64,000 bases of DNA from a virus (taxonomy: Duplodnaviria; Heunggongvirae; Uroviricota; Caudoviricetes). The number at the start of each line of letters is the position of its first letter. The stretch's first letter is position 1. Where the stretch lies: IMG/VR virus record IMGVR_UViG_2919367315_000003, positions 30,134 to 94,133 of that record; one strand, given 5' to 3'. The translations under genes and the position numbers were made by a program. Shown piece after piece: positions 1-30,345 of this stretch. The notes under the pieces were generated by a model. That model saw only the letters and a program-made list of their open reading frames with translations, made no database searches and was not told where the DNA came from.

Positions 1-1003
1 TTCCTAGTGGAGACTTAAAATCGCCAATATTACGTATGCTTTTTAATTTATTTTCTAATTCGGTTAAACTATTTTGAGCTTGAGCGTTTCCACTAAATTT
101 ACTTCTGGCATCATTAATCTTCTGTTGAGTATTTGCCACAGACTGAGCATATTGCTGATCTCTTTTAGTATTTTGCTGTAATGCTAAAGCATGTTGTTTT
201 TCCTGTGCAATCTGTCGTTCACTGTTACTCTTAAGAGCTTGATAGTGAGCACGATCCAGTGACTCAGCAGCCTTCAATGATTGCTCTTGGCTACGTCTGT
301 CGATTTCTCTATTTCTTTGTAACGCTTGATAATGCAGTTTATCCATAGCTTCTATACGTTGCTTATTGGATTTCAACGCATCGTAATGCGCTCTATCCAT
401 AGTTTCAGCCGATTTAAGCGCTGCTTGTTGCTGTTTCAAAATCTCGTTGATCTCGCTATAATTCTTAATATTACCTTGCTGATCTAACTTTACGGATATC
501 TGCTGTCCAGAATCATTTTTATATGTATTAGTTGTGCTATTTGTTTCACCAAGTTTATTCTTGTTAGCTCTTGTTTTCGCTAAGGTATAGCCTTCTAGTT
601 CTTTTTCTAATTGCTTAAGTGTACGAATCTGATCTTGTAGAGACTTGGATTCTGCATTTACTGCATTTTTATTAGCATCATGAACCGTTTTAGTCTTTTC
701 GATTACTTCGCCATTTTTTAATACTTGTTGAGTAACCTGTTTTACTGTGCCGTCTAAATTCTTATACACATCTTGTGTTTCTTTTACAACTCTATTTTGC
801 TGTTCCAGGGATACATTTAATTTTTTCGTAGCATCAATAAATCCCTGAATTGACTTCACGAAACTTTGATCAACATTGATTTTTAGATCAAGCTTCTGAA
901 GAGAAGGATGCTTAGATAAAATTTTGAGGCTTTCATTCACGCTTTTTATACTGGCTCCCATGTTGAGACCAGCAGTAATCAATATCTTTAAAGAATCATT
1001 CAT
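1..1003 (-). CDS. Tail tape measure protein, N-terminal part (SPbeta YomI-like); runs off the window start
   Basis: Translated by hand: ATG at 1003 after RBS AAGGAAGTG; MNDSLKILITAGLNMGAS...NLDGTVKQVTQQVLKNGEVIEKTK resembles the YomI N-terminus; helical, Q/K-rich; lies downstream of the tail genes; frame is open at the window edge. Confidence 0.8.
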   Translation of the reverse strand, partial: MNDSLKILITAGLNMGASIKSVNESLKILSKHPSLQKLDLKINVDQSFVKSIQGFIDATKKLNVSLEQQNRVVKETQDVYKNLDGTVKQVTQQVLKNGEVIEKTKTVHDANKNAVNAESKSLQDQIRTLKQLEKELEGYTLAKTRANKNKLGETNSTTNTYKNDSGQQISVKLDQQGNIKNYSEINEILKQQQAALKSAETMDRAHYDALKSNKQRIEAMDKLHYQALQRNREIDRRSQEQSLKAAESLDRAHYQALKSNSERQIAQEKQHALALQQNTKRDQQYAQSVANTQQKINDARSKFSGNAQAQNSLTELENKLKSIRNIGDFKSPLG

Positions 1004-1032: not shown

Positions 1033-1060
1033 AAAGAAGTGATCGTTTGATCGCTTCTTT
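1033..1060 (-). terminator. Intrinsic terminator between the HNH gene and the tape measure gene
   Basis: AAAGAAGCGATC-aaac-GATCACTTCTTT followed by ATTTGTTTTTTTT on the minus strand. Confidence 0.65.
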
Positions 1061-2291
1061 ATAGTAAGTTGAAATTTGGATTTTCCGAAAGTATATTTTT
1101 CATATATTCTTCCCATTGTTCTTTCGTATTAAATTCACGCCCATATAAACTGTGAAAATCACTATGACACAATTCGCACAAAGTAATTCCATTATTTATA
1201 TCCGTTCTTTTATCTTTGCACCAATGGTAGCCATCGAGATGGTGTGCATTCAACCTCTGACTTCCTCTTTTCCAACAACATTGACATGTATAATTATCTC
1301 TTTCATAAACTAATTTAGTCCATTCACGATACTCTAAATAATTCCGTCTTTTGATCCTATAATTTCGATCCAAAAAAGGATTCCAACTGTGATGCTTATC
1401 TCCAGAATAATTCCTTCTCTTTTCTATCCACTTTTTATACCTACATTCTTTACACCCGCTATTGTCTTTAAAATTATTCAATGTATTTTTATCGATTTTC
1501 CCACAACTACAAAGAAACGTTAAAATTTGTTTGTTTGAATTTCTATAATCTTTTGTAAGCAGAAAACAATTATTATCTAAAAAAATTTTCCTTACTTGTT
1601 TATATGACAATCTCCTTGAATATCCTACTTTTTCAGAAGCACATTTTTTACACCGATGACCATTTTGAAAAGAGTTAAACGATATTTTGGAAATGTTTTT
1701 ACATTCGCATTTAAACTCTAATTTATCTGTGTTTCCTCTATATTCAGTAGAAAGTAATTCACATCCATTTTCTTTGAAAAAATTATAGACATATTCGTAT
1801 GAATGAAGTCTAGTTTTTCTTCTATCATTCATACAACCCCTACATCTATTTCCGTTTTGAAAAGATGAGAAACTTATCTTTGATTTCCTACCACATAAAC
1901 AGATGTATTCTAGTGGACTAGATGCATTGCTATAGTTTTCACTTAATAAAGTGCAAGCATTATTTGAGAAAAAGTTTTTTACAAATTCAAATGAATGTGA
2001 GCGTAGATAAGCTCCTTTTTTTACCGAACAGTTTCGACATGTATCGTAATTACTATCAAAACCTTTGTTGTTTAAACGATTTTCATATAGATAGTTGAAT
2101 TTAATATTAAATAAATTACCACATATATCACATTTGTATCTGACCAACACTAAAGAACCTTTAGTCAGATGTTCTGGGGGAACTGAAAATTCATGACCTT
2201 TTCCAGTGAAGTCATACCCTTTACTTTCATACCATTTTCTATTTCTAGTACCCCATTTTGCAATATATTTATCGTGTTCAATAAATGACAT
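1059..2291 (-). CDS. HNH homing endonuclease with repeated Zn-ribbon units
   Basis: C-terminal RDNYTCQCC...LNAHHL...NGITLCELCHSDFH HNH motif; three S(Y/F)..V..FF..N.C.LL...Y.N....L.(Y/F).C.C repeats. Confidence 0.85.
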   Translation of the reverse strand: MSFIEHDKYIAKWGTRNRKWYESKGYDFTGKGHEFSVPPEHLTKGSLVLVRYKCDICGNLFNIKFNYLYENRLNNKGFDSNYDTCRNCSVKKGAYLRSHSFEFVKNFFSNNACTLLSENYSNASSPLEYICLCGRKSKISFSSFQNGNRCRGCMNDRRKTRLHSYEYVYNFFKENGCELLSTEYRGNTDKLEFKCECKNISKISFNSFQNGHRCKKCASEKVGYSRRLSYKQVRKIFLDNNCFLLTKDYRNSNKQILTFLCSCGKIDKNTLNNFKDNSGCKECRYKKWIEKRRNYSGDKHHSWNPFLDRNYRIKRRNYLEYREWTKLVYERDNYTCQCCWKRGSQRLNAHHLDGYHWCKDKRTDINNGITLCELCHSDFHSLYGREFNTKEQWEEYMKNILSENPNFNLL

Positions 2292-2363: not shown

Positions 2364-2786
2364 TTATTCCTCATCTTTATATTCAATTTGTTCTACAACT
2401 TCACAAAAACGGTCATACCAATCAGCAGCAATACCTTCAAACTCGGTGGGGCCACGATTAATTACGGATTCTTTGATAGACAGAAGCATCGCTTTTCTTT
2501 CGTTTGTTTCATCAATAACAATTTGTTCTTTGTGCAAGTTTTGTATCTCCGACAGACGCTTATGATTATTTTCAAACGTATATTTTTCATCTTCTACAAC
2601 AGGGTTACCGTCAGAATCTTTAATGACATAATCCATGTTTATATCATTTGTATCTTTCAGAAATTCATCGTAGTGTTCTAGAAGGAGCTTCTTAAACTTT
2701 GCTTTATGTCTACTGTCAGTTCTATCTGTCTTTAAGGTATCGAGATATGCAATGAAGTTCTCAAGTTCAAATTTGTATAGTTTCAT
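2364..2786 (-). CDS. Phage protein, DUF1617-like
   Basis: SR.K.KF.KLL...KDSDGNPVVED pattern recalled from DUF1617 phage proteins; RBS AAGGGAG. Confidence 0.45.
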   Translation of the reverse strand: MKLYKFELENFIAYLDTLKTDRTDSRHKAKFKKLLLEHYDEFLKDTNDINMDYVIKDSDGNPVVEDEKYTFENNHKRLSEIQNLHKEQIVIDETNERKAMLLSIKESVINRGPTEFEGIAADWYDRFCEVVEQIEYKDEE

Positions 2787-2851: not shown

Positions 2852-3853
2852 TTAAAAAATCTGATTCTTCTCATCTTCGAAATCGCGTAAATCATAAATA
2901 GATGTAGTGGAAATATCATTGTGATGTGCAACGAACTTCGAAACTATCTTAATATCCTTACCACTTTCTAAAAGATAGGTGATACATGAATTTTTGAAAA
3001 TATGTACATTAACTCTACGCTCCAAAATATCAGAGAGAGTATTTGAACAAAAATCATCTGCCCAAGCAGGAGACATAGCCTTTATCTCATTACCATATTT
3101 AGTGGTAAAGATATATTCACTTTCATAGCCACGAGAATCTACCCATTTTTTCAAATGAGGAACAACATCTAATGGGATCATATATTGAATCGGCTTCCCG
3201 TCTATCGATTTACCTTTTCCTCTTACGTTATGAGTCATAATATAATTCTTGTCTTGTTGAACTTCATAATCTAAAATTTCAGTTTTAAACTGAATAATTT
3301 CGGAGCGTCTTGCACCAACTCTAAAAGCTGTAGCCAGCCAAGCCATTCCAAGCCAGTTTTCATCTTCTTCTAAGACGTTCATCATCATGTCGTATTCATC
3401 TTTTGTAACTTTTACTTTTTCATAGACACGGTTTTTAGAGATAGCAGGGAGACCACGAGTAAAATTTCGGAAACTTTTGTAGTTTTCGTCCTCTTCTGCA
3501 ATGATGTTTTCAATGTGATTACAGAAACTTGAGATAACTGATTTTCTAAAACTTATTGCAGAGGAAGACATCTTTCTGTTATCACGGATATAGCTTAAAT
3601 ACCGCAAGAAATCTCTTTTTGTGATTTTATAGAAGAGTTTATTATTCATTGAAGTAACCATGTACCAACCGAACTGCCTAATTACACTTGTGTACTGCTT
3701 GCGCGATTGGGGGGAGAGGTCTTGTACTGAGACAAATTCCTCAGCATTAAACCTGTAGTCCTCATTGACTTGTTGCCACATTTCATCTGTTACTTCGGGC
3801 TGCTTTTTTGCAGGTTCACGTAATGTATTCTTTTTGATTTCTTTTCTTGCCAT
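2852..3853 (-). CDS. Tyrosine recombinase/integrase family protein (SPbeta YomM-like)
   Basis: SAM-like N-terminal domain; catalytic motifs GARRSE, GKG, HIFK (HxxK), HHNDISTTSIY. Confidence 0.85.
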   Translation of the reverse strand: MARKEIKKNTLREPAKKQPEVTDEMWQQVNEDYRFNAEEFVSVQDLSPQSRKQYTSVIRQFGWYMVTSMNNKLFYKITKRDFLRYLSYIRDNRKMSSSAISFRKSVISSFCNHIENIIAEEDENYKSFRNFTRGLPAISKNRVYEKVKVTKDEYDMMMNVLEEDENWLGMAWLATAFRVGARRSEIIQFKTEILDYEVQQDKNYIMTHNVRGKGKSIDGKPIQYMIPLDVVPHLKKWVDSRGYESEYIFTTKYGNEIKAMSPAWADDFCSNTLSDILERRVNVHIFKNSCITYLLESGKDIKIVSKFVAHHNDISTTSIYDLRDFEDEKNQIF

Positions 3854-3962: not shown

Positions 3963-4406
3963 TTATTTCTGTACGTCCAATCCTTTTTTACGTAACCCCC
4001 TATATAAAGCAGCTTCGACTAAGCCGCTATTCTCCAATTCCTCTCTAGTTGCTTCGGTGAATGGCCTTGCTACTCCAGCGTAGGGGAACGAATACTGGTA
4101 TCCTTCGCCTGTCTCCACAATTTCAGATACATTTCTGCCATCATCCATGCGTTTACTCTCAACAGAGACCGTATCCTTACCAACCATTTTTATTTCTATA
4201 TTTTCATCGTCAATCAATCCACCATGTTCTCTTTGACGCTGATAAGTAGAAGGGTGGGGGTAAACTGAATAAACTTCTTCTTCAATCTTTTCCTTCATTG
4301 TCTCTCGAACAGTTTTACTTACATCGACCTCTAGTGTCTCAGAAATCTGTTCGTTCAGATGTTTCATCAGATCTGTCAGATTGTTAAAATCCATTATTAT
4401 CACCAT
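3963..4406 (-). CDS. HK97 gp10-like tail/neck component
   Basis: 147 aa, ...ETGEGY...ARPF motif, position in tail module. Confidence 0.5.
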   Translation of the reverse strand: MVIIMDFNNLTDLMKHLNEQISETLEVDVSKTVRETMKEKIEEEVYSVYPHPSTYQRQREHGGLIDDENIEIKMVGKDTVSVESKRMDDGRNVSEIVETGEGYQYSFPYAGVARPFTEATREELENSGLVEAALYRGLRKKGLDVQK

Positions 4407-4878
4407 CCTGATTTAAAGCATTGGCTAACATAATTTCTCCTACGGTTGCTTTAGCACTTTTCGCGGCTTCCTTAATTTTATCTACAATTTTCTGGTATTC
4501 ACCTTCAGGAAACTTACTCAAAAGTGCCTCTGTGATACCTTTATCTGCAAGCAATTCAGATAGACCAATGATTTCTTTCAGTGTCGCTTTTTTTGGAACG
4601 GGAATATTGGTGAACTCTCTAAAAGCCAAAACAGGAACTAGTTTCAATGTGCCCTTAATCAATTCATTATCCAATTGATCACTCTTTGATGTTTCACGTA
4701 GTTCTTGAAGGTATCCAATATAAGACATAGCAACGTTCTCAATTAGAGAGTCGCGAAATTCAACGCTTACAGCAACTTCGTATTCTTCTCCATCATTAGT
4801 TTTGATGTACTCATTTTTCTTTTTATTTAGACTTGATTTCAGTTTACCAAGCTCTGAAGCAGTAAGTTTCTTAGCCAT
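4384..4878 (-). CDS. Probable tail assembly chaperone
   Basis: Helical 164-aa protein between tail-tube and tape-measure genes; assignment is positional. Confidence 0.4.
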   Translation of the reverse strand: MAKKLTASELGKLKSSLNKKKNEYIKTNDGEEYEVAVSVEFRDSLIENVAMSYIGYLQELRETSKSDQLDNELIKGTLKLVPVLAFREFTNIPVPKKATLKEIIGLSELLADKGITEALLSKFPEGEYQKIVDKIKEAAKSAKATVGEIMLANALNQDGDNNGF

Positions 4879-4891
4879 CTAATTCGCTCCC

Positions 4892-5875
4892 TTAACGACA
4901 ATAATAAGCATTAACTACTTGCGATGCTCTTATGTCGTAATTGTGATATTTATAAACAAATCTTTGTGCTTTTTTTGCTTTGATTTTTCGCTGTCTATCT
5001 GTCATATTAAGAACTTCGTTGACCATTTGAATCATTTCGTCAGTCGTTTTAGGAAGATAGACTAAATCATGAAATAGATATTCCTGAGCTTTAGTCCACG
5101 GGGACACAAATATCCCTCCACCTATGGCTACTGCCTCAAAGGGTCTCATTGAAGTTTGTGTAATAGAATGATCATCTAAATTTTGACCGATGACAATTTT
5201 AGATGAAGAGTAGAGTAGGGGGAGATCTTCATATGCTTTGTACCCCTTATATACATGCGGGTGACTAACTAAATTTATCTCACGGTTTCGATCCATCCAC
5301 CAGTCATTACCGTAGACAGACATATCAAATCCTTGTTCGATTAAAGGAACAATAAAATCTTTTGTTTGTTTAGATCTTCGTTCGTAGTTATTAGCTACTA
5401 GTGAAATATCATAACTTATCTCAGTAGATACTGTCTTGTGGAAAGAGGGATTACACCCAAATAGCATTAACTCTGCCTTTTTACCTTTGTTCCAGTAATT
5501 TGGTAAACATTCGGCGGTGGTGGTAAAGATATGGTCAGCATAGTTTGACCAGTAGTCGCCTATCCAGTGGTCATGAGGAGTATCTTCGATTGCCCAATAA
5601 GCATGGAAAATGCCTTTTTCTTTAGTGTGCTCAAATATATCTTCAGCAAAGTTCGCGAAGCATTCCGAAAAAACAATGTCGGGTTTATAATTTTCAACTG
5701 CCTCTTTGAATAACTCACTCTGGATTTCCTTAGACTTATCCCACAGTTGGTACCTACCATCCATAATATAAGTGTCACATCCAAGGTTTTTAAAGCCTGA
5801 AGCAATACCATACTTGATTAACGCTGCATTATTTGTAAAAAGCACTTTCAATTTTTTAGTCAAGTATAACACCAC
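4892..5875 (-). CDS. CgeB-family (GT-B) glycosyltransferase
   Basis: YWAIEDTP, DHIFTT, LMLFGCNPSFH, YDISLVAN, MRPFEAVAIGG motifs typical of CgeB-like enzymes; TTG at 5863 is an alternative start. Confidence 0.8.
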   Translation of the reverse strand: MVLYLTKKLKVLFTNNAALIKYGIASGFKNLGCDTYIMDGRYQLWDKSKEIQSELFKEAVENYKPDIVFSECFANFAEDIFEHTKEKGIFHAYWAIEDTPHDHWIGDYWSNYADHIFTTTAECLPNYWNKGKKAELMLFGCNPSFHKTVSTEISYDISLVANNYERRSKQTKDFIVPLIEQGFDMSVYGNDWWMDRNREINLVSHPHVYKGYKAYEDLPLLYSSSKIVIGQNLDDHSITQTSMRPFEAVAIGGGIFVSPWTKAQEYLFHDLVYLPKTTDEMIQMVNEVLNMTDRQRKIKAKKAQRFVYKYHNYDIRASQVVNAYYCR

Positions 5876-6860
5876 TCTTTAAACAGTAATCATTAATGGC
5901 TTTAAGTATCTGTTCAGAACGTTTCTCCCATGTATTTTCTTTAGCGTGTTTAAGGCATATATCCTTATAGGTGTCCATTTTTCCAAGTTCGATTGCTTTG
6001 TCGACTTGGGCTAAAAATTCATCGTCATTATCAGCAACTAGAACAGCTTCATCATAAATCTCTGTTTCCATCCATTTGGTAGCTACAGTGATTTTACCCG
6101 CAGCCATATGTTCGAACATTTTAATAGCACATGCTGCTTGTGTAATTTCCAATTTAGTATTGAAGGGAAGGAGACATACATCAGCATGAGCATAATAGTT
6201 GTAAAGGTCGTCATGATCCTTGGTTCCCAATTTAATGACATTTGATGGACATTCCTTGCCAAACTCTTGTCCCACAAGCACAGTAGTATATTTCTCTGCA
6301 ACTTTACGAATCAGACGAGTATCCACCCAAGAGCCAATAGCACCTGAAAAGAGGGCAATTGGGCCATTTAATGTTTTATATTCTTCAGGAATTTGTGAGG
6401 GTTTATTTATATATGATTCTGGACAAGCATTTCTGACTAAATATGTACTTTCACTGCTTTTGCCTCTAAGGTCATACAGAAACTGACTAGACGTTAACAC
6501 AATGTCGGCTTTCTTAATGGCATCATCTTCATATTCATACCAATCACTAAAACTATCAACCGAATCATAGATATTAATCTTTGCTTTTATATCTTCGACA
6601 TATTGAGCTGATTTTGCCCAAGTGTAATAAAATATATCTACTTTGATGCTTCTATGCTTAATTAATTTAAGTACTTCTTCGAAATTGTGATATACGAATA
6701 GATTGGTTTCAACTTCTTCAGGTGGCTTGTCTGATTGAGTGTTATTACAGAAAACCACTGTCCAACCTCTTCTGGCAAACTGTTTTACGATTTGCTGAGG
6801 TCGTTGAGTGAGGAAATCCCAGTTAAGGGTGGGTGGATAAAGTATTATTTTTTGTTTCAT
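5856..6860 (-). CDS. GT-B (GT4/TuaH-like) glycosyltransferase
   Basis: WDFLTQRPQQIVKQFARRG, YDSVD, LVRNAC, FSGAIGSWVD, ADVCLLPF, IKMFEHMAAGK. Confidence 0.85.
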   Translation of the reverse strand: MKQKIILYPPTLNWDFLTQRPQQIVKQFARRGWTVVFCNNTQSDKPPEEVETNLFVYHNFEEVLKLIKHRSIKVDIFYYTWAKSAQYVEDIKAKINIYDSVDSFSDWYEYEDDAIKKADIVLTSSQFLYDLRGKSSESTYLVRNACPESYINKPSQIPEEYKTLNGPIALFSGAIGSWVDTRLIRKVAEKYTTVLVGQEFGKECPSNVIKLGTKDHDDLYNYYAHADVCLLPFNTKLEITQAACAIKMFEHMAAGKITVATKWMETEIYDEAVLVADNDDEFLAQVDKAIELGKMDTYKDICLKHAKENTWEKRSEQILKAINDYCLKSGVILD

Positions 6861-7605
6861 TTAAGAACTCCCTTAAATATTCTGGACTCATAATATGATT
6901 CGAAAACACACTTAAATCACAAAAAAGCTCAAATCCTTTGTCCTGAGCCATTTTACAAAAGTATGCATCCTCGCCTTGTGGATGAAATCCGTATTTTACT
7001 GACTTGTAGACTTTACGACTTAGCAAAATTACTGCTCCCGTTAAATCAACTTCCATAAGAGTAGGGGAGGAGAGGAGGAGGGCATTTTTCACCTGATTGT
7101 TTACAATATGTTCAAAGTAGCCTTTACTATTGAGCTTCATGATGTTTGGATATAGATATGGCTTCTCAGGACGAACAACATATCCGTTCCATATCAACCC
7201 CGACACGATATCTTTATTATGTTTGAGTAGATTATTAATGATATCAGGCTGCACAAGGATATCTGTGTCTACAAACATCAGATAATCAGTTTTAACTTTT
7301 GACATGATATAATTCCGTAATTTACTCAAATGAGTATATATGAAGTTGTTTCTAATGTTTAAGTCTCTTTTATCTACAGGAGCGTTTCGATTGTATATTT
7401 CAATTCTAATATTTCTATATATATGCCCATATATCTTTTTAAAGTTGTACAGTATTTCTAAAGAAGCATCATTTGAATCATTGATTACAAATATAAATTC
7501 AATCAAGTTAGTAGGATAATTCAAATTCAATAAGCTTTTTAAATATTCATCTAATATCCACTCACGATTACGAACAGGCGTTGCAATGGTAACAGTTTGG
7601 TTCAT
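6823..7605 (-). CDS. GT-A (GT2) glycosyltransferase
   Basis: IATPVRNRE, INDSND, LRN, DxD motif MFVDTDIL, GEDAYFC. Confidence 0.85.
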   Translation of the reverse strand: MNQTVTIATPVRNREWILDEYLKSLLNLNYPTNLIEFIFVINDSNDASLEILYNFKKIYGHIYRNIRIEIYNRNAPVDKRDLNIRNNFIYTHLSKLRNYIMSKVKTDYLMFVDTDILVQPDIINNLLKHNKDIVSGLIWNGYVVRPEKPYLYPNIMKLNSKGYFEHIVNNQVKNALLLSSPTLMEVDLTGAVILLSRKVYKSVKYGFHPQGEDAYFCKMAQDKGFELFCDLSVFSNHIMSPEYLREFLNETKNNTLSTHP

Positions 7606-7627
7606 ATAATCTCCCTTGTAAAATTAA

Positions 7628-7653
7628 AGAGCCGAAGGATAACCCACGGCTCT
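7628..7653 (-). terminator. Terminator-like hairpin after the major tail gene
   Basis: AGAGCCG-N12-CGGCTCT followed by TTAATTTT. Confidence 0.55.
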
Positions 7654-7671
7654 TACTGTTTAGACATTTAT

Positions 7672-8448
7672 TTATTTTTCGTAGATAATTTCTTCTTTCA
7701 TTACTTCTACTCCATTAACTGTTACAGGGAACAAGTCAAACGTCAAACTAAGGGAGCTTGGGTCGCCAGAAGGAGAGTAGTTAACTGTGTAGTTCGCTTG
7801 AAGTTTAGCCTTACGGTAAATTTGCTGAGAACCGACCATCTTACCAGCTTTCTCATCGGCATACAAAGTGTCTCCTGCAAGAAATACATAGCCCGGGAAT
7901 CCTTTGGTCGTATACGAAAGTTTTGCTGCATTTGGGGTATTGAATTGATAGTAAACTTCAACATCGTTACCGACTTCAATAGTTGCTGTAGCATCTAGTG
8001 TTACTACATTATCAGTAATATCTTTGATGGGTTGTGCATCAGCCATGATACCGTTTATGTATGCAAATACCTTCACATTAGTCTTATCGCCAATTGGTGC
8101 TTTGTCTAGAGTAATTTGTTTTGCTCCAGAAGTATCCTTCATGACAGTCAAAATTTGAGACTTATAAAGATCTTGCGCGCCTTTTTCAATAGGTTCTCCA
8201 GCAAGCATAGCAAGATGTTGTAAGGTAAAAATTTGAGTCTCTACTTTAAGTGTTGAATCTTTATCTCCAGACCATGCAATCCGTTTGGGATTACCATCAC
8301 CGCCTCTAGCAAACACCGTCTCAGATGTCCATTCGTTACTGGTGGTTGTGGCATAGTCGAAAGTCATAAGTGGAGTACTTGTTACAAAATCAAAAATTTG
8401 AAGATTGAGATTATTTCGGGAGCCGTAGCGTCCTAGTTGTATTGCCAT
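7672..8448 (-). CDS. Major tail tube protein (YomU-like)
   Basis: ARGGDGNPKRIAW...TLKVETQIFTLQHLAMLAGE pattern like the SPbeta tail tube; T/S-rich; followed by a terminator, as expected for an abundant structural gene. Confidence 0.7.
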   Translation of the reverse strand: MAIQLGRYGSRNNLNLQIFDFVTSTPLMTFDYATTTSNEWTSETVFARGGDGNPKRIAWSGDKDSTLKVETQIFTLQHLAMLAGEPIEKGAQDLYKSQILTVMKDTSGAKQITLDKAPIGDKTNVKVFAYINGIMADAQPIKDITDNVVTLDATATIEVGNDVEVYYQFNTPNAAKLSYTTKGFPGYVFLAGDTLYADEKAGKMVGSQQIYRKAKLQANYTVNYSPSGDPSSLSLTFDLFPVTVNGVEVMKEEIIYEK

Positions 8449-8473
8449 AAAGGATAGTTCCTCCTAATTTATA

Positions 8474-9199
8474 CTATAATTTTGTTTTCTCCATCCACTC
8501 AGGGATAGAGTTGTCTTCAGGTAAGGTTTTTTCGTTAGACCATACTGGTAAGAGTCTGTTGTAATTTTCTTTCTTATTCACTCTTTCAAAATGCTCATAA
8601 ATTTGATACACAGTGAGTGACCCAACATTAAAAATATTGATTCCATTTCCTTCGAAATTGCAGAGTATGGATAAAATATCTTTGAATTCTAGCTGATTTT
8701 CCGAGTTATTGTTTTTTATTTGAGCTTCATACATTTGCATTTTTTTATAAAACTCTTCTGCCGTACTATTTGCTGCCTCTATTTTTTCTTGAGAATCGGA
8801 AGATACATTTAATTCTTTTATAATTAAATCAACTTCTCTATAATTGTTTTTATTTATAAATTCTTTCCCATCCAAAAGAAAACAAGATGTTTCAATATTG
8901 AAACTTACGTGACCTTTAACAAAAAAGGAGAGAGCTTTACATATTTCATTTCTAATAGACGGAACTTCGATTAGTACATCATAATCAGACTCATTCTTTA
9001 TTTTCGAAAAACTGTCATTATCTAACCCAAATAACCCCACTAAAATTTTCTCTTTATCAAACCCCACCAAAGCTAGATTAACTAAATAATTCAAATATCC
9101 AATTTCACCGATTTCATCAACTGTGGGAGAGTATATACGTATACTTTCTTTTATTTGATGGGGCAAGCCCAGAAATGCTTGTAGGCGATCAATAACCAA
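8474..9199 (-). CDS. Virion/tail-associated protein (YomV-like)
   Basis: Synteny; NIFNVGSLTVYQIYEHFER C-terminal motif. Confidence 0.45.
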   Translation of the reverse strand: MVIDRLQAFLGLPHQIKESIRIYSPTVDEIGEIGYLNYLVNLALVGFDKEKILVGLFGLDNDSFSKIKNESDYDVLIEVPSIRNEICKALSFFVKGHVSFNIETSCFLLDGKEFINKNNYREVDLIIKELNVSSDSQEKIEAANSTAEEFYKKMQMYEAQIKNNNSENQLEFKDILSILCNFEGNGINIFNVGSLTVYQIYEHFERVNKKENYNRLLPVWSNEKTLPEDNSIPEWMEKTKL

Positions 9200-9208
9200 A
9201 TAACCACC

Positions 9209-9682
9209 TCAATTAAAATCCCAAAGTTTGTACTGTATATAGAATCCAACGTACTTTTCATTCACAAACATTTCATCCATACGATAAAACTGCAACTTAC
9301 CAATACCAAGATTTCTGTTGTCATTAAACAATTCATCTATGTAAGCCAACATATGGTCATATCTTAAAACTTCATATTCAGTAAGAATTAAATCCTTGTG
9401 TACTAAAACTTGAAAATGCAATAATCCTGACTTAAACTGTGATCCAGCAGGTCGGTAATCTCTAAATGAGAATGTTACATAGGAAGAAGCTGTATCGGCT
9501 AATGTTGGAACATGATTGAAGGGAAAAATATTATTATTGACCAGTTCCGAGGGATCTTCAATATTTGGTCGATCAAGATAATCATTTTCTTTGTACCAAA
9601 CTGATTTACAAAGTTCCTGCGAACTCAATAAATGATTCAGTACAATCATACGATTTTTGCCCATTTCCTCAAAGCGAGACAT
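9209..9682 (-). CDS. Putative tail terminator/completion protein (YomW-like)
   Basis: 157 aa immediately upstream of tail genes; synteny. Confidence 0.45.
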   Translation of the reverse strand: MSRFEEMGKNRMIVLNHLLSSQELCKSVWYKENDYLDRPNIEDPSELVNNNIFPFNHVPTLADTASSYVTFSFRDYRPAGSQFKSGLLHFQVLVHKDLILTEYEVLRYDHMLAYIDELFNDNRNLGIGKLQFYRMDEMFVNEKYVGFYIQYKLWDFN

Positions 9683-9683
9683 A

Positions 9684-10193
9684 TCAGTTTACAATATAAT
9701 CGCGCTCAATCTCGTATCTTACGTAACCACTTGTAGACACGTCCCTAGTGTCATCAAGTGTAGAGATAACCTTGTCGACTTGATCTAACAACAATGGATT
9801 TGTTCGATGAACTTCTTCGCCTAGACTGTTTCTAACAACTACACGATAGTAATTCCCGTTTGGAACCAAATTGCCTAATTCGTATGTGATTGAAATACAT
9901 TTTAATGTATCAAGTGCGGAACCTTTGTCTAGATGTGTAGATTTATCAAACGCAATTTTTAACTTATTGTCTGTAGCTATACTATATGCGTAAACATATT
10001 GAGGATCAATTTTCACATCTAAGTCTGCATCAATAATTTCTACAGTAGGGGTGGCACTAATAATAATTGAATCATCTAATCCCGATGAATGTTGTTTAGA
10101 GTAGGGGAGAGGGGAGAAAATAAGCCAATTATTATTGACACCCTGCATAAACTGTTCTAGTTTAAGCTCGCCAAATCTTTTGATAGCTTGCAT
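9684..10193 (-). CDS. Hypothetical neck-module protein
   Basis: Coupled ORF in the structural operon. Confidence 0.5.
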   Translation of the reverse strand: MQAIKRFGELKLEQFMQGVNNNWLIFSPLPYSKQHSSGLDDSIIISATPTVEIIDADLDVKIDPQYVYAYSIATDNKLKIAFDKSTHLDKGSALDTLKCISITYELGNLVPNGNYYRVVVRNSLGEEVHRTNPLLLDQVDKVISTLDDTRDVSTSGYVRYEIERDYIVN

Positions 10194-10204
10194 GGATACA
10201 CTCC

Positions 10205-11416
10205 TTATAGTAATGATTTAATTTCAATTGCTTTTGTTGTATAAGCTAATCTAGTAGAGTTTTCGACATGCAAAATAACTCTGCCTTTTTTGTTGTTAGC
10301 TTTAATTTTACAAACCTGTCCATCTTGTTCGATCAAGATAGCCAAAGTAGTAGGTGTTACACTGTCTGTTTCACTTAGCCAAAATCGAGCTTTTTCTTGT
10401 CGATCAATTCCATTATCCTTAAACGAGCAAGTGAAGGATTTAGTCATATTATATTTAATGAAGTCGTCGCCTATAATTTGAGCTGTATAATTATTTGTAG
10501 TAGAGGACGTAACATTAATTTGAATGGTTTGTGATATATTTCTGAATGAAATGGTTATTTTACTTGTTCCTTTTTTTAAAGGAGTTACTAAACCCGTAGG
10601 GGAGACTGATATAATAGTTTCATCAGCGACAGAGTATGTAATTTTCTCATAAACTTCTATTACCTTTGAATTGTTCGTAAGTTCAACGTTTAATTGTAAA
10701 GTCTGATTTTCTTCAATGGCTACAACGTCCTTAACATTCAAAACCTTAAGTTGATAGTTAGCGACGTTGCCATTATAATCGGCAATCTCAAGTTCTAAAT
10801 TATCAGTTGCGTTGTTTATTAAGTCCTCTTTCAATGTCAAATAGTTGAGACCTGTATCAAGTTTGTTTATAGCGGTAATAGACCAAGCCCTACCATCAAA
10901 GATGAATCTCTTCTTTTTGGTAAGCTCATCCGTTTTCTCATTTGCGGAAATAACAACATTTCTTCTTTCATTTGGTAGTTCAATAATCTTTCCATCATCA
11001 ACACCAAAGTTTGTGATATTATCATTGGTTAACGCAAACGGGGATTCAACAATCTCACCAGTACTGTCCACCCACCTAAGAGATGACACACATTTTAACA
11101 ATACGCCTTTACTATAAATATCATCGCGTGGATCACAATCAATTATAATCCAATTTATATTTTTCCATTTTACAATATCGCCATTAGTAAGTGACTCGTC
11201 TGGCTTCGAGATGATTGTTTTTGTTTGATCTTTGGTTGACGATGTTATGACTACACTACGTTTATTATTATTAATCACTACATCAAAAACAGAAGGGTTC
11301 TTTTCAAATTGAATGTTTATGGATTTTTTTACGTTATATATGTCGATGTCTCTAGCATTTTTAGTATTGTAAGCATTATTGATTTTTTTATAATAATCTA
11401 TATTCATATTAATCAT
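10205..11416 (-). CDS. Head-closure/neck protein with Ig-like (Big_2) domain
   Basis: N-terminal head-tail-joining-like repeats (GDIVKW, WIIID, FIFDGRAWSIT); ITYSVADETIISVSPTGLVTPLKKGTSKITI is a Big_2 signature. Confidence 0.6.
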   Translation of the reverse strand: MINMNIDYYKKINNAYNTKNARDIDIYNVKKSINIQFEKNPSVFDVVINNNKRSVVITSSTKDQTKTIISKPDESLTNGDIVKWKNINWIIIDCDPRDDIYSKGVLLKCVSSLRWVDSTGEIVESPFALTNDNITNFGVDDGKIIELPNERRNVVISANEKTDELTKKKRFIFDGRAWSITAINKLDTGLNYLTLKEDLINNATDNLELEIADYNGNVANYQLKVLNVKDVVAIEENQTLQLNVELTNNSKVIEVYEKITYSVADETIISVSPTGLVTPLKKGTSKITISFRNISQTIQINVTSSTTNNYTAQIIGDDFIKYNMTKSFTCSFKDNGIDRQEKARFWLSETDSVTPTTLAILIEQDGQVCKIKANNKKGRVILHVENSTRLAYTTKAIEIKSLL

Positions 11417-11897
11417 TCACATACTTTGAGAAGTCAATTGATTTAAGTTTGCCTGTCATTCTGTCACGAGATGCATATTGTGATATCATTTTATTATTTT
11501 CTTCAATAATGCCATAGTACATATCCATGAACGTTTTTCTCTCATTAGCAGGACTAAATACTTGTAAATCTTTTGTTGAGAATCTGACTTGGAAAGCCTT
11601 CAATAAAGACATATCTTTTTCATAATATTTCTCTCGCATTATATTGGCAACGAGATCAATTTCTGTTGGGGTTAAATCGTCAACAAGCAGATTCTCATTA
11701 TCATCATAGTCAAAACTAATATCAGAACTGCATGAAATCTTAAGTTTTGCTAATGATTCCTTAAGGTACTCACGCGATCTGCTCAGTGCAATTTCCATAG
11801 CCTCTTCTTCGGTGACGTTATTGTATGTAAAAAAATCCAAATCCTTTTCAATTTTATTAAAAAAAGCTGTTTGTAGAGATGAGAAGGGAGTTGCCAT
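11409..11897 (-). CDS. Putative head-tail adaptor
   Basis: Position after capsid genes; FSTKDLQVFSPANERK motif. Confidence 0.45.
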   Translation of the reverse strand: MATPFSSLQTAFFNKIEKDLDFFTYNNVTEEEAMEIALSRSREYLKESLAKLKISCSSDISFDYDDNENLLVDDLTPTEIDLVANIMREKYYEKDMSLLKAFQVRFSTKDLQVFSPANERKTFMDMYYGIIEENNKMISQYASRDRMTGKLKSIDFSKYVND

Positions 11898-11908
11898 TTA
11901 ATCACCCA

Positions 11909-12616
11909 CTATACTTTTTTATTCATGGGTCTTTTTGTTACAATTGGCTCTTTGTTTGTCTCTGTCTCTGTGCTATGTTCGTCTGGTTGACTTTGTTCTT
12001 TCTGTTGACTTGCTTGATTCATGAGTAAGGCCCTTAATTCTGCAATTTCTTTTTCCAATTGCGAAACCTTATTGTCGTCAACTGAGGGATTATTGATTTG
12101 TTTGCCTGCTGGATTTTCACCATAAGAAGATACAATACTTATTTCAGAAATTCGTTTACCCGAATATAGTTCTTTGTATCTTTCTTCGACTACATTTTTT
12201 ACTCTCGTACTAATATCATAAAATTTTGTGTTCTCAAGCTGAATTACCAAGCCTCTAACACGCTCAAAAAGGGACGCCGATTGAATCTTAATAAGTTTAG
12301 TCAGTCCTTCTTTGGTAGGGCGCAAGATAATATTTTTAATATCTTGATTGGTAAGTATATCTTTATAATCTCTAATTGATAATTTTTCATAGATTTCATC
12401 GGAAAATTCACCGTCAAACCACAAAAAACCTTCTCTAAAAATATTTGATTGACTGTTTATGCCTCTAATTTCAGCGAAAGACAATTGTTGTGCAAACGGA
12501 TGCTCTTCGTTAGCTGGCTCAAATGTATAGCCATCGGGCTTTATATGAGAAGGAACCGTGATTACACTGTCAGAATAATTTAGTACTTCGATGATTGTAC
12601 TGTCGGTAATAGCTAT
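11909..12616 (-). CDS. YonA-like head-associated protein; true start probably ATA at 12616
   Basis: Frame is open upstream of the track TTG (12484) to 12661 with no ATG/GTG/TTG; RBS AAGGGAG lies 9 nt before ATA-GCT-ATT-ACC-GAC. Confidence 0.55.
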   Translation of the reverse strand: MAITDSTIIEVLNYSDSVITVPSHIKPDGYTFEPANEEHPFAQQLSFAEIRGINSQSNIFREGFLWFDGEFSDEIYEKLSIRDYKDILTNQDIKNIILRPTKEGLTKLIKIQSASLFERVRGLVIQLENTKFYDISTRVKNVVEERYKELYSGKRISEISIVSSYGENPAGKQINNPSVDDNKVSQLEKEIAELRALLMNQASQQKEQSQPDEHSTETETNKEPIVTKRPMNKKV

Positions 12617-12638
12617 AGTAATACACTCCCTTAAATAA

Positions 12639-12658
12639 GGGGATGAATGAACATCCCC
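12639..12658 (-). terminator. Hairpin after the major capsid gene
   Basis: GGGGATG-N6-CATCCCC. Confidence 0.55.
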
Positions 12659-12676
12659 AAATTATATTTTCAATTA

Positions 12677-13666
12677 TTAAGTAAGGACAATTTTGGCGAT
12701 TTTATCAATTTTATTGATAGCAGTACCAAATTCAAAGCCAGTGATCTTGAGATCGACTTTTTCGCGATTATTATCAAATGTTTCAAGAACACGCAACTGT
12801 CCACGCATATCCAGTGTACCGATTTTACCAGCGATACCAAATACCCGCTTGTCAGGAAGCAACTGCATGTTATCACCAGTACGTTTTGCTCCAGAGATAT
12901 GCCCGATACGAAGGCCGTTATAAAAATTTACAAGTCCATATCTATTGAAATCATTTTTCATTTGTTCAGACATAAATGTGACTTGACCAGCCATTTTAGC
13001 GATTTGTTGAGAGTATTTAGACAATGAAACTGTCATTGGATTCTCTCCTCTATCAATTAAGTACAAAGCGAGTGCATCGAGTGCGGCAGGGGTAAGGGTG
13101 GCGCCACCAGCATTAATTAGTTGCTCGCCGCCACCAATGGCTGCGTCAATCTGAGAAAAGATATCGAAAAACATTTTATTTTTCAGAGCCTCTTCGGAAA
13201 AAACCGTTAGGTTGGCAATAGTTTTTACACCGTTACGGCGCAAGTCAGCATATGTAATTTCAGTTTCAACTTGTTTGTGTTTCCAAACAGGAGCAACCTT
13301 AGTTACATCAATATATGATTTATTTACATTACCGCCCTTTGCAGAATCATAAGCAATCAAAGTATTTTTTGGGTCTTCATTGATTTGATAATCATCGAAT
13401 TCTCCAATAGAACCGCGATCAAACATAGAGTCAAGCAATTCATCTGGAACATCGTAAACTTCTGGCGCAACTACTTTGACCACAAAGTTAGAAATCTCCA
13501 TATTAGGATCAGAGCCTTTTTCACCAATTTGTTTAGCCCACGCATCCACAACCGTAGAAATTTCTTTTTCTTCTGTATCTAGCTGTTTCTTATATTCAAT
13601 TTTGGAAGCCCATTCGAACATTTTTCCTTTTTCATTCATCAAACTTGCGATTTCTGTATGTAACAT
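12677..13666 (-). CDS. Major capsid protein (YonB-like, HK97 fold)
   Basis: 329 aa downstream of portal/protease; pattern and synteny match SPbeta YonB. Confidence 0.8.
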   Translation of the reverse strand: MLHTEIASLMNEKGKMFEWASKIEYKKQLDTEEKEISTVVDAWAKQIGEKGSDPNMEISNFVVKVVAPEVYDVPDELLDSMFDRGSIGEFDDYQINEDPKNTLIAYDSAKGGNVNKSYIDVTKVAPVWKHKQVETEITYADLRRNGVKTIANLTVFSEEALKNKMFFDIFSQIDAAIGGGEQLINAGGATLTPAALDALALYLIDRGENPMTVSLSKYSQQIAKMAGQVTFMSEQMKNDFNRYGLVNFYNGLRIGHISGAKRTGDNMQLLPDKRVFGIAGKIGTLDMRGQLRVLETFDNNREKVDLKITGFEFGTAINKIDKIAKIVLT

Positions 13667-13694
13667 TTATTTGCTCCTTATATGTATATTATTA

Positions 13695-14144
13695 TTAAAG
13701 TACTTCTACGGAAGCTAGAGTGTGACCATTGTCAACTACTGTACCTGCAAATCTAAAACCAGTAGGATCAGTACTTTTCTTTAGTTTTCCTGCGTCTACA
13801 CCAGTTGTTTCAGCAGCTAAAAAATCCCCTACAACGAGGCCTGTGGCCAGGTATTCTGTAGTACCGTAAATTTCTCCACTCAAGGGTTTTTCAAGTACAA
13901 CACGCTCACCAGCCTTTACATTCTCAAGACGAGTATCGTAGTCTGAAATTTCACCTTCTAAACTCATCAACCCAGTAGGATAATTATCTTTATTGACAAA
14001 ATACAAACCTACTTGAGAAATAGGGGCAATAACTGTCTTTGTATTAAAATCCTTTTGAACTAGACGACCACGAACGGTTGGTGTTGCTGCTTGAAATGTA
14101 GCGTCAGCTACTTTATTAATGTGTGTTTGCAAATGTCTAAGCAT
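13695..14144 (-). CDS. Capsid decoration/cement protein (YonC-like)
   Basis: 149 aa beta-rich protein between protease and capsid genes. Confidence 0.5.
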   Translation of the reverse strand: MLRHLQTHINKVADATFQAATPTVRGRLVQKDFNTKTVIAPISQVGLYFVNKDNYPTGLMSLEGEISDYDTRLENVKAGERVVLEKPLSGEIYGTTEYLATGLVVGDFLAAETTGVDAGKLKKSTDPTGFRFAGTVVDNGHTLASVEVL

Positions 14145-14172
14145 TTAAATTTATTCCTCCAGTGAATATGAT

Positions 14173-15630
14173 TTATTTATTGTGTAAAAAATGAGACATG
14201 ACTTGAGCTGACTCATAAATATTTTCATCAGTGTTAATATTTTTCTTGGTTGCTGAAACTTCAATTTCCGTATCTTTTTTTTCTGAGTTTTCGTTACTTT
14301 GAGCCAGTTTTTGAATGAATCTTTCTGCGATAATTGCCTTGATTCCTTTTTCATCTAATTCATTAATAAGCCTTGAAATCTCTTCTGAGGTTTCGATTTC
14401 CTCTTTAGTAATAAAATCACCAGCAGTAGCCAAAACCTTTAAATCTTCTTTTTTTTGAGCCGTTTCAGCTTCTTTTTGTGCTTTTTCAGCTTCTTCAATT
14501 TGTTGTTTAAACGGCACTAGTTCACTGATTTCTGTTTCTAGTTTAGTAATCTTGTCACTAGCTTCAACTAAAGCACTGGTTTTAACATCTAATTCGGAGA
14601 TCAACTTTTCATTTTCTGCGGAAAGGTTTTTATTGGTCAACTCTTTTTCACTAAGTAATTTAGCAGTATCGTCAAGATTAACACTGATATTCACATTTGT
14701 TTTTTCAGAAATTAACTTGCTTAGTTTTGTCTCAGTCTTATCTCCAACAGAAACTACGTCTTCATTGACGGTATAGGTGACCACTAGATAATCATCCTCT
14801 GAATCTCTGTCGATATCATACGCTAAAATCTTATGTTCTTCAGGGTAAATCTCCCAAATAGAATAATATGGATTACTATTCCATCCTTTAGGATTTAGCG
14901 CCTCGTAAACTTTTTGATGTAGGTCTCTAGTAGTTAGAGAGGCTACTTGTTTTTTTTTCAAATCTTCTTCCTCCTTAGTTGAAAAAGCTATATCGGTAAT
15001 TAAAGCATTGACCAGTTCATTTTCAATATCGGTATTATCTTTTGAAGCGATATTGATCAGGCCGCTTGAAGGATAGGCAGGAGCAACTGTTTCACCTAAA
15101 AGTGCATGTCCTATAAATACTCCATTATCAATATATTTAATTTGTTTACCATCTAAATCTTCATAGTGACTCTCAACCACTTGTACTTCCCATGATGTTT
15201 TTATACCCTCTTCAGAGGACATTCTTCTAGAGATGACATCATATGCTTGAGAGAATCTTTTCCATATCTTTGCGTTTGCAACGATATGCTCTTTTCCGTC
15301 GATTTCTTCAATACTGGCACTGTAAAAACTTCCAAAAGCGGAGGTGTCAAACTCGATTTCTTGATACGTATTCCCATTTTCGTCTTTTTTCGCTACAATC
15401 TTTACATTATGACCCGAAAAATCATTTCCATTTTGTGTAGTAACAATTTTCCCAACTACAGGTTTGGTGATGAGGGTGGTAAGCCAAGACTCGATGGTAT
15501 CTCTAGTTAGTGCAACATCATTTCTATTTGGATCAAAATCGCAAATAATAAATTTTGCATCCAATGTATCACTATCTACCGTGTCGCTAATATGTATTTT
15601 AAAATTACTTGTAAATTTAATTGTTTCCAT
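14173..15630 (-). CDS. Prohead protease-scaffold (YonD-like)
   Basis: N-terminal NRN...KPVVGK...H...WEV...GHALLG...PAYP protease-like domain plus acidic coiled-coil C-terminus. Confidence 0.7.
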   Translation of the reverse strand: METIKFTSNFKIHISDTVDSDTLDAKFIICDFDPNRNDVALTRDTIESWLTTLITKPVVGKIVTTQNGNDFSGHNVKIVAKKDENGNTYQEIEFDTSAFGSFYSASIEEIDGKEHIVANAKIWKRFSQAYDVISRRMSSEEGIKTSWEVQVVESHYEDLDGKQIKYIDNGVFIGHALLGETVAPAYPSSGLINIASKDNTDIENELVNALITDIAFSTKEEEDLKKKQVASLTTRDLHQKVYEALNPKGWNSNPYYSIWEIYPEEHKILAYDIDRDSEDDYLVVTYTVNEDVVSVGDKTETKLSKLISEKTNVNISVNLDDTAKLLSEKELTNKNLSAENEKLISELDVKTSALVEASDKITKLETEISELVPFKQQIEEAEKAQKEAETAQKKEDLKVLATAGDFITKEEIETSEEISRLINELDEKGIKAIIAERFIQKLAQSNENSEKKDTEIEVSATKKNINTDENIYESAQVMSHFLHNK

Positions 15631-15647
15631 TATTTCTTATCACCTCC

Positions 15648-15785
15648 TTAACCAAATTCTATACTCAATTCTTTAAGTAATTGTTCAACAGAAGGAGAGA
15701 GACTATCACTCTTAGTGTGTCGTGTCTTATTCAAAACAACATTAATTTCTTCATTACAGCAAGGGCAAATAATATTTAATTTCAT
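15648..15785 (-). CDS. Small 45-aa ORF (MKLNIICPCCNEEINVV...)
   Basis: Translated by hand; ATG overlaps the portal stop codon (ATGA); ends at the RBS of the next gene. Confidence 0.5.
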   Translation of the reverse strand: MKLNIICPCCNEEINVVLNKTRHTKSDSLSPSVEQLLKELSIEFG

Positions 15786-17365: not shown

Positions 17366-17383
17366 TTATTCACCTCGTTCCGT

Positions 17384-25627: not shown

Positions 25628-25866
25628 ATTAATAGTTTATTCTCCTTTCCATTGATAGTAGTTGGCTCATATGGCTCTCTATAATACTTCTTTTGCGCTT
25701 CATTCTTTAACCAAATTACTTCATCATCCATATATGTATAATCTACTTCTTCAATGTCTATATCTAGTGAGACATCTCTTTTATCATAGTAATCTAACTC
25801 ATATCCATCATAGTACAAATCCTCCCATGTAATAGTTGAGTGATTTCCTTTATTATTTTTGTGCAT
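25624..25866 (-). CDS. Acidic hypothetical protein
   Basis: RBS GAGG; overlaps the RNAP start. Confidence 0.55.
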   Translation of the reverse strand: MHKNNKGNHSTITWEDLYYDGYELDYYDKRDVSLDIDIEEVDYTYMDDEVIWLKNEAQKKYYREPYEPTTINGKENKLLI

Positions 25867-26015
25867 TATGTATTTTTATTCCTCTCGAGATATATTTTCA
25901 GAGACGATCAATCTCTGTATAAACAATATAACACGATGGATTTATAAACGTCAATAAAATAATTATTTTCATTATATTTACTTGTATAATCATAAGATGT
26001 ATAATAGATATAAAG

Positions 26016-27089: not shown

Positions 27090-27090
27090 T

Positions 27091-30007: not shown

Positions 30008-30016
30008 TTTTACCTA

Positions 30017-30111
30017 ACCTCAAATCATGCAACATCTTACCTCAAATCATGCAATGTTCACCCTCAATTTATGCAAGGGTCTACCTCAATTTATGCTGCA
30101 TGATTTGAGGT
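30017..30111. repeat. Iteron array / putative replication origin
   Basis: (A/C)CCTCAA(A/T)T(C/T)ATGC at 30017, 30039, 30061, 30083 (exact 22-bp period) plus an inverted copy TGCATGATTTGAGGT at 30097-30111; AT-rich tract follows. Confidence 0.85.
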
Positions 30112-30345
30112 CTAGTTAGTAGTTCTTAAATCTTTAGATTTTAGATGTGTATATACAGTATTTAGAGTATGTCTACGCTAACGCTTATCCTACTCTCTGT
30201 TGTTGTTTTTTTGTTGATAGAGGATAAGTTAGTTTTTATAATCAAACAAATGAATATAATGAACTATATTGACTTTAATATGATTGTGTAGTATTGTTGA
30301 ATAGAAGTGAAAATAAAATTAGCAAAGGTGGATTAGATAACTAAG

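Follow-up and report, generated by a model that had tools for sequence, protein, structure and literature searches.

To our knowledge, mycobacteriophages are the only phages in which enzymes of the phage itself have been demonstrated to glycosylate the virion. There, glycosylation changes antibody recognition of the particle. Later papers place virion-glycosylation cassettes in mycobacteriophages Che8, Corndog, and Myrna (Freeman et al. 2023, via PMC12363180, PMC11600133) and the glycans on the C-terminal tails of capsid and tube proteins (PMC12619734, citing Freeman et al. 2023). The experimentally proven system, according to such papers, is Corndog gp36-38 (PMC11600133, PMC12363180), which comprises three glycosyltransferase (GT) genes that overlap by 4 nucleotides (nt) and lie between head genes. 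The subject of this report is a GT cassette in a 64,000-nt window of an SPbeta-like Paenibacillus provirus (IMG/VR record IMGVR_UViG_2919367315_000003, 158,133 bp), of which the window covers positions 30134-94133. Its three overlapping genes, GT_A, GT_B, and GT_C, occupy the minus strand at 4892-7605 of the window, between the gene of a YomU-type tail-tube protein and the YomO/YomN genes.

Like the mycobacteriophage cassettes, this locus consists of tandem, overlapping genes for soluble GTs that are set within a structural block and unaccompanied by lipid-carrier machinery, and its presumed function is likewise to place glycans on proteins of the particle. It differs from them in host, which belongs to the Bacillota and not the Actinomycetota, in its location in the tail rather than the head module, and in having no methyltransferase. 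In addition, the capsid and tube proteins encoded here have no Ser/Thr-rich C-terminal tails.

The spore proteins YkvP and CgeB are soluble enzymes thought to glycosylate the spore protein shell from its cytoplasmic side, together with the GT-A enzymes CgeD and SpsA. GT_C shares its fold and the PF13524 family with YkvP and CgeB. Unlike YkvP (399 amino acids, aa), it has no C-terminal extension, and unlike both proteins its gene belongs to a late operon of a phage, with no visible sporulation promoter; GT_A, in turn, differs in kind from CgeD and SpsA, and spore-type loci lack it. Gtf3 and GtfC of streptococci and lactobacilli, compact GT-B enzymes about 330 residues long, add to the sugar that GtfA/B place on serine-rich repeat adhesins. 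The process proposed here would resemble adhesin glycosylation in being stepwise, lipid-free, cytoplasmic, and carried out by several soluble GTs, whereas the phage has neither a serine-rich acceptor nor an accessory Sec system. The Anp1/Mnn9/Van1 (GT62) mannosyltransferases, the collagen galactosyltransferase ColGalT1, and R699 of mimivirus act on glycoproteins; unlike these enzymes, GT_A is a bare 260-residue domain without a membrane anchor. The operon of SPbeta has the same skeleton as that of the window, but its corresponding slot is filled with PBSX-like fibre genes (youA, yomT, S, R, Q, and P) rather than GTs.

The best-supported explanation of the cassette is late cytoplasmic glycosylation of at least one virion protein with GT_A as the priming enzyme, a proposal whose chances we consider evenly balanced. 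It is favored by the absence of a promoter or terminator belonging to the cassette, the presence of soluble GTs only, the ties of the GT_A family to virus morphogenesis modules, the spore-type descent of the follower GTs, the Corndog-like layout, the recurrence of the slot among relatives, purifying selection, and the exchange of enzymes behind a constant GT_A. According to this proposal, the cassette would be expressed together with the late tail genes, and its enzymes would work in the infected cell's cytoplasm, with one or more virion proteins as substrate. GT_A would recognize the acceptor and add the first sugar from a host nucleotide-sugar, a priming role that is probable because GT_A is the only enzyme common to all cassette versions. 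GT_B and the YkvP/CgeB-type GT_C would extend this sugar, and in sister phages other second and third GTs would give rise to particles with different glycans. Two of the enzymes appear to come from the kind of soluble GTs thought to decorate the spore protein surface from the mother-cell cytoplasm, and such chemistry would fit a phage particle, which is likewise made of protein and put together in the cytoplasm. From this genomic context we infer that the cassette is co-expressed late, that its acceptor is a protein, that the steps run in the order given, and that the product reaches the virion, as well as glycosylation itself. The initial annotation of this DNA had already read the locus as a virion-glycosylation system; its gene identities, late-operon placement, and link to CgeB have held, and its priming logic is backed by comparison, whereas the acceptor that it named is not supported.

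The three enzymes and their relatives

All three genes are real open reading frames (ORFs) with overlaps of 38 nt (GT_A/GT_B) and 20 nt (GT_B/GT_C) as annotated, and all three products exceed the Pfam gathering scores. GT_A (6823-7605, minus strand), the first and constant enzyme of the cassette, is a soluble 260-aa protein with a GT-A fold and likeness to Anp1/GT62 enzymes (PF03452 Anp1, 58.7 bits; PF00535, 47.6 bits). The GT2-type DxD motif originally ascribed to it is DTD (D113/D115), which, together with G211-E212-D213 and H237, is invariant in alignments of 11 and 28 family members. GT_A is intact at these catalytic motifs, with a DxD and a distal histidine as is usual for GT-A enzymes that depend on a metal. 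The AlphaFold2 (AF2) model of GT_A, with a predicted local distance difference test (pLDDT) value of 93.7, best matches the N-terminal GT-A domain of ColGalT1, Anp1/Mnn9/Van1, and mimivirus R699 (template modelling, TM, scores 0.73-0.78; E 1e-17 to 1e-14) at 15-21% identity.

GT_B (5856-6860, minus strand) is a soluble 334-aa enzyme with a GT-B fold (PF13524, 36.2 bits; PF13692, 34.7 bits). It had been labeled TuaH-like, but its likeness to TuaH is remote, with a score of 42.2 bits against a cut-off of 550 for the NCBIfam TuaH equivalog. GT_B is instead a generic GT-B/GT4-like enzyme. GT_C (4892-5875, minus strand) is a GT-B enzyme of the YkvP/CgeB family, 327 aa as annotated, with a PF13524 (Glyco_trans_1_2) score of 59.9 bits against a gathering cut-off of 25. 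Its translation probably begins at TTG 5863, behind a good ribosome-binding site, because the resulting length of 323 aa equals that of NCBI homologues; the overlap with GT_B would then be 8 nt. The description of this gene as CgeB-like is borne out and sharpened by its AF2 model (pLDDT 94.9), which among Swiss-Prot models is closest to YkvP of Bacillus subtilis (TM 0.80, E 4e-21, 26% identity), followed by CgeB (TM 0.71, E 4e-12). The alignment covers YkvP residues 1-318. The YkvP_N domain (PF12996) is unreported for GT_C at E <= 0.01 and is on record for homologues 60-89% identical to it. The best matches of GT_C among solved structures are Gtf3 and GtfC, at 12-14% identity. In sequence-based comparison with solved structures, GT_B gave no matches and GT_C gave weak matches to trehalose-phosphate synthase.

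Collectively, the modeled fold likenesses lean towards protein-directed enzymes, both for GT_A (ColGalT1, Mnn9/Anp1, R699) and for GT_C (YkvP, CgeB, Gtf3/GtfC). No membrane segments were found in GT_A, GT_B, or GT_C, with a largest 19-residue Kyte-Doolittle mean hydropathy of 1.44. All three genes are under purifying selection, as indicated by ratios of nonsynonymous to synonymous substitution rates of 0.15-0.21 (GT_A), 0.02-0.11 (GT_B), and 0.07-0.09 (GT_C), which are similar to those of the tube gene. Near-identical DNA was not found in the GenBank phage collection, and a tblastn search of the same collection yielded two matches for GT_A, one for GT_B, and none for GT_C.

The follower enzymes are akin to GTs of spore-type loci. 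Outside the phage clade, the nearest homologues of GT_C (44-47% identical) are encoded by CgeB-like genes in bacterial gerE/sipL loci, which combine sipL, a gene of spore coat morphogenesis, with a gerE-like regulator, sugar epimerases, and additional GTs. The best match of GT_B, at 27-28% identity over its full length, is the GT that adjoins the CgeB-like gene in these loci, and a GT4 enzyme found in another version of the cassette is 40% identical to a neighboring GT in the same loci. Because homologues of GT_B, GT_C, and the GT4 enzyme stand side by side there, both elongating pairs seem to draw on apparent spore-surface glycan loci. No counterpart of GT_A was found in the gerE/sipL loci. 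Two metagenome contigs (L016 and L019, about 6700-20000) carry gerE-like and sipL genes, a CAP-domain gene, five to six GTs, epimerases, and an aminotransferase; these look like uncharacterized spore-surface glycan loci of clostridia-like bacteria.

Relatives of GT_A, in contrast to those of its followers, are found among virus morphogenesis genes. Distant relatives occur on at least 391 IMG/VR contigs, as a rule with portal and capsid genes on either side, and a cluster of 40 loci has the constant order portal, small ORF, GT, 585 aa, 251 aa, and major head protein. Other relatives, in viruses unrelated to this one, are encoded within the morphogenesis module of archaeal virus PhiF1, between the genes for capsid and tail tubular protein A in phage MW202711, and between the portal and capsid genes of a contig from a Cloacimonadota metagenome-assembled genome. 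In 17 further clusters, the neighbors belong mostly to terminase, portal, head-morphogenesis, and capsid families, with additional GTs also present. This pattern is suggestive and does not amount to formal enrichment, because structural genes fill much of any phage genome. The 40-locus cluster (L087 and 39 similar IMG/VR loci from uncultured viruses), in which the Anp1-like GT is fixed between portal and major head protein, provides candidates for capsid glycosylation in its own right.

From these origins, a more specific history can be put forward, which we regard as possible and somewhat doubtful. An SPbeta-like Paenibacillus lineage may have captured spore GTs of the YkvP/CgeB type and joined them to a virus-specific, Anp1-like primer that is common beside portal and capsid genes in uncultured viruses. 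The outcome would be a spore-crust-like glycan coat built without Ser/Thr-tail acceptors, and the swapping of elongating enzymes would create 'glycotypes'.

The tail-operon slot and its exchangeable enzymes

Every gene discussed here is encoded by the minus strand and is thus transcribed towards lower coordinates. When flanking sequence is included, the provirus has the order capsid, head/neck genes, YomV-like, tube, GT_A, GT_B, GT_C, YomO-like, YomN-like, recombinase, DUF1617, HNH, and tape measure. This order is that of the SPbeta tail-operon skeleton (YomX, W, V, U, the slot, YomO, N, and M to the tape measure YomI), a match based on the SPbeta record and on the Pfam families YomX, W, V, U, O, and N found on homologues. 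The gene immediately upstream of the cassette (7672-8448) encodes a 258-aa protein of the YomU family. Its identification as the tail tube, made in the initial annotation, is corroborated by a match to phrog_2729 (1e-64), by matches of the family profile to the PDB tail-tube chains 8k98 and 9jgh (~1e-18), and by Pfam YomU_Tube on homologues. The cassette does lie inside the late tail operon, as had been claimed, but it does not adjoin the tape-measure gene, since YomO-like, YomN-like, tyrosine recombinase, DUF1617, and HNH genes intervene.

The cassette had also been placed in a single transcription unit with the tube gene and without a promoter of its own. No evident promoter was indeed found: a scan for sigma-70 promoters returned 59 sites against 50.2 ± 7.0 in shuffled sequence, i.e., no excess. 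However, between the tube gene and GT_A lies a terminator-like hairpin (7620-7654, minus strand; -19.3 kcal/mol, z -3.4) with an 8-bp GC-rich stem, followed by a broken U-run. Relatives have hairpins of other sequence at the same spot after the tube gene. The hairpin is probably an attenuator, by which all genes after that of the abundant tube protein would be expressed at a lower level. The ribosome-binding site of GT_A (AAGGGAG) follows the hairpin directly, which leaves no apparent space for a promoter before the GT_A start. At the other end, the YomO-like gene starts 13 nt past the GT_C stop, and the cassette therefore has no terminator of its own. Given the lack of both signals and the translational coupling of the genes, the cassette should be co-transcribed with the essential tail genes (YomO, YomN, and tape measure). 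The GT_A homologues of L002, L005, L007, L008, L009, and L010 (~7990-8001) have apparent ATA, ATT, or TTG starts behind a normal ribosome-binding site, whereas that of the window has ATG; such starts may be a means of keeping the enzyme level low.

To place the locus in a wider context, it was compared with some 25 related proviruses, drawn from IMG/VR, from NCBI genomes, and from Logan assemblies. Wherever the cassette is present among them, it occupies the slot between the tube gene and YomO, a position used in all of these proviruses, and never lies outside the tail operon. Among the relatives compared, GTs in this slot are restricted to the Paenibacillus lineage. The same operon without the cassette is found in eight IMG/VR contigs (with either tube allele), in Geobacillus virus E3, and in Bacillus phage PJN02, where the slot is empty or holds small ORFs. 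The PBSX-like fibre genes that fill the SPbeta slot are another sort of virion surface cargo, and we count this in favor of virion glycosylation.

Although the position of the cassette is fixed, its content is modular. GT_A is present in every version, at 52-92% identity, and is followed by at least four sets of enzymes among the relatives. The version in the window combines GT_A and GT_B with the YkvP/CgeB-type GT_C. A second has GT_A, GT_B' (40% identical to GT_B), and the 383-aa GT4 enzyme mentioned above; a third has GT_A with a single GT-B enzyme; and a fourth (L056:7777-9223) has GT_A with a GT8 and a GT32-like enzyme. The L056 cassette contains no GT-B enzymes, and its GT32-like DXD enzyme has a weak likeness to the catalytic domain of TcdA/TcdB. 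A constant first enzyme with exchangeable followers resembles glycan loci in which one enzyme fixes the acceptor and the rest define the glycan. This supports, as an inference, the priming-plus-elongation logic already put forward in the initial annotation.

Acceptors and competing explanations

The acceptor that had been named, a T/S-rich tube or capsid protein, is not supported. Ser and Thr make up 15.9% of the tube protein, compared with 14-20% in cassette-less relatives, and the protein has no C-terminal extension. The N-terminal stretch in which Ser and Thr are frequent is conserved and structural, and the GT-lacking phages E3 and PJN02 have it as well. The capsid protein (12677-13666, minus strand) has 10.6% Ser+Thr and no tail. 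Because neither protein has a tail and the tube composition matches that of GT-less relatives, adjacency is all that points to tube or capsid as the target.

Several further results weigh against the glycosylation of virion proteins. Ser/Thr-rich tails are absent from all structural ORFs, tube and capsid included (windows of 30 and 10 residues), and collagen-like G-x-y repeats are absent from the provirus. When the tube proteins of GT-carrying and GT-lacking phages were compared, no discriminating column, extension, or composition shift was found. The two tube alleles are only about 22% identical, and each is found with the same cassette types; there is consequently no sign that enzyme and substrate co-vary with respect to the tube. 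More generally, the alleles of cassette type, tube, YomV, the 403-aa YomX-like protein p403, YomO, and tape measure assort independently. The junction behind the tube gene also attracts insertions in general, among them homing endonucleases and small ORFs, and position alone is thus weaker evidence than it appears. A GT-A or GT-B fold likeness, moreover, tells little about the acceptor. Homology to Corndog gp35-39 is negligible, the best pair being GT_A/gp37 with 23% identity over 145 aa (32 bits), and family profiles reach only E >= 0.004.

The sole real Ser/Thr tract in the provirus belongs to a secreted protein of 245 aa encoded outside the window (G000:C1:18525-19262, L044). In addition to a signal peptide, this protein has an N-terminal domain resembling copper amine oxidase, a Ser/Thr/Pro-rich linker, which is the only mucin-like tract of the provirus, and ankyrin repeats; it is probably exported as an accessory (moron) protein. 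Among the structural proteins, p403 (10205-11416) has an Ig-like domain and 16% Ser+Thr. It looks exposed and could be an acceptor, with no tie to the cassette.

The lack of an evident virion acceptor lends some weight to a different target, namely a host envelope glycopolymer (wall teichoic acid, secondary cell-wall polymer, or an exopolysaccharide intermediate) modified at the cytoplasmic face. We consider this explanation unlikely. Its effect would be to alter the phage receptor, either in the lysogen, where superinfection would be excluded, or at a late stage of infection, which would keep progeny from sticking to debris. Prophage-encoded soluble GT-A enzymes, such as TarP of S. aureus, do modify polymers of the wall teichoic acid type, and the teichoic-acid GTs RmlT and TarS are among the lower-ranked fold matches of GT_A. 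Likewise, GT_B has a weak similarity to TuaH, the alternative GT4 enzyme has weak similarities to EpsE and TuaC, and the exchange of GT sets is typical of serotype-converting loci. Such a role is difficult to reconcile with a cassette that has no promoter or terminator of its own, whose transcription must run into YomO, YomN, and the tape measure, and which never leaves the tail operon in the relatives compared. Late expression would leave little time for wall remodeling, and the distant relatives of GT_A between portal and capsid genes point away from the envelope. No membrane protein or flippase accompanies the enzymes: neither a flippase nor a priming phosphotransferase, polymerase, or sugar-synthesis gene adjoins the cassette, and no further PF00535 (GT2) or PF00534 (GT1) matches occur elsewhere in the provirus. 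A GtrABC-type system of serotype or lysogenic conversion was considered and rejected, given the absence of membrane segments and of a flippase gene and the embedding in the tail operon.

The kinship of GT_C with the B. subtilis spore proteins YkvP and CgeB, its structurally nearest relatives, raises the question of whether the prophage remodels the glycan of the spore coat or crust in the sporulating lysogen through this enzyme and its partner GTs. SPbeta itself is linked to spore polysaccharide synthesis, as it integrates in spsM, and homologues of GT_C, GT_B, and GT4 are adjacent in the loci with gerE-like and sipL genes. A spore role is nevertheless improbable in our judgment. No sigma-K/sigma-E type motif was found in the 495 nt upstream of the cassette, which is embedded in a late lytic operon behind a terminator-like hairpin. 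The constant GT_A, with relatives in virus head modules, has no counterpart in spore loci, and some cassette variants have no YkvP/CgeB-type enzyme at all.

Glycosylation of modified bases in the phage DNA for evasion of restriction, a strategy of T4 and of other phages whose hydroxymethyl bases are glycosylated, is highly improbable: sets of phage GTs are known to assemble di- and trisaccharides on DNA (Pyle et al. 2024, cited in PMC12619734), but no hydroxymethylase of the thymidylate-synthase family (PF00303) was found in the 158-kb provirus by a search that matches 10 of 14 control genomes, the cassette lies in the tail operon at a distance from replication and nucleotide-metabolism genes, and the relatives of the enzymes are GTs of spore loci and head modules.

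Implications and further features of the operon

Virion glycosylation, to return to the favored explanation, would plausibly extend to the Bacillota through different enzymes, with a spore-surface ancestry and without a recognizable acceptor tag. Neither the cassette nor tail-operon GTs of SPbeta-like phages are described in the literature searched, in line with the novelty initially claimed; because the search omits most subscription-journal papers, this result is no proof of absence. If the proposal is correct, virion glycosylation would reach the well-studied SPbeta architecture, with enzyme families that have no detectable homology to the Corndog GTs tested and an acceptor rule other than a Ser/Thr tail. 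The chemistry of the phage particle would be tied to that of the spore surface, and the GT_A family, present on at least 391 IMG/VR contigs, would serve as a marker by which such systems can be traced in metagenomes. With their exchangeable enzyme sets, these phages would also form a natural series for asking what role the glycan plays in adsorption, soil stability, or evasion of host defenses. The system is tractable, since its Paenibacillus hosts can be cultured and the prophages look complete. The provirus studied here is rated complete by CheckV, and the named homologues of its proteins are from Paenibacillus only, for most of them from the P. polymyxa group.

The remaining genes of the operon flank the cassette on both sides. 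Upstream, the YomV-like gene (8474-9199, minus strand) precedes the tube gene, and several head and neck genes come next after the capsid gene. Downstream are the YomO-like tail gene (4384-4878, minus strand; 164 aa; phrog_7383) and the YomN-like tail gene (3963-4406, minus strand; 147 aa; phrog_19892), with Pfam YomO and YomN, respectively, on homologues. They are followed by a gene for a YomM-like tyrosine recombinase (2852-3853, minus strand; Pfam Phage_integrase and Phage_int_SAM_4), a DUF1617 gene (2364-2786, minus strand), an HNH endonuclease gene (1059-2291, minus strand), and the N-terminal part of the tape-measure protein (2-1003, minus strand), whose gene leaves the window at its start. 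The full tape measure has 2450 aa (ORF 23784-31136 of the provirus), and its homologues contain PhageMin_Tail, SLT, and NLPC_P60 domains.

Genes for homing endonucleases (HNH, HNH_repeat, and DUF7487) occur at differing tail-operon junctions among the relatives. Their sites include 1059-2291 in the window, L002:6830-7966, L026:10603-11745 (between GT_A and GT_B), L027:10969-12297, and L035 ~4300-5000, which makes the tail operon a hot-spot for selfish insertions. The YomM-like tyrosine recombinase, for its part, is found at the same place in the tail operons of SPbeta, E3, PJN02, and the Paenibacillus proviruses.

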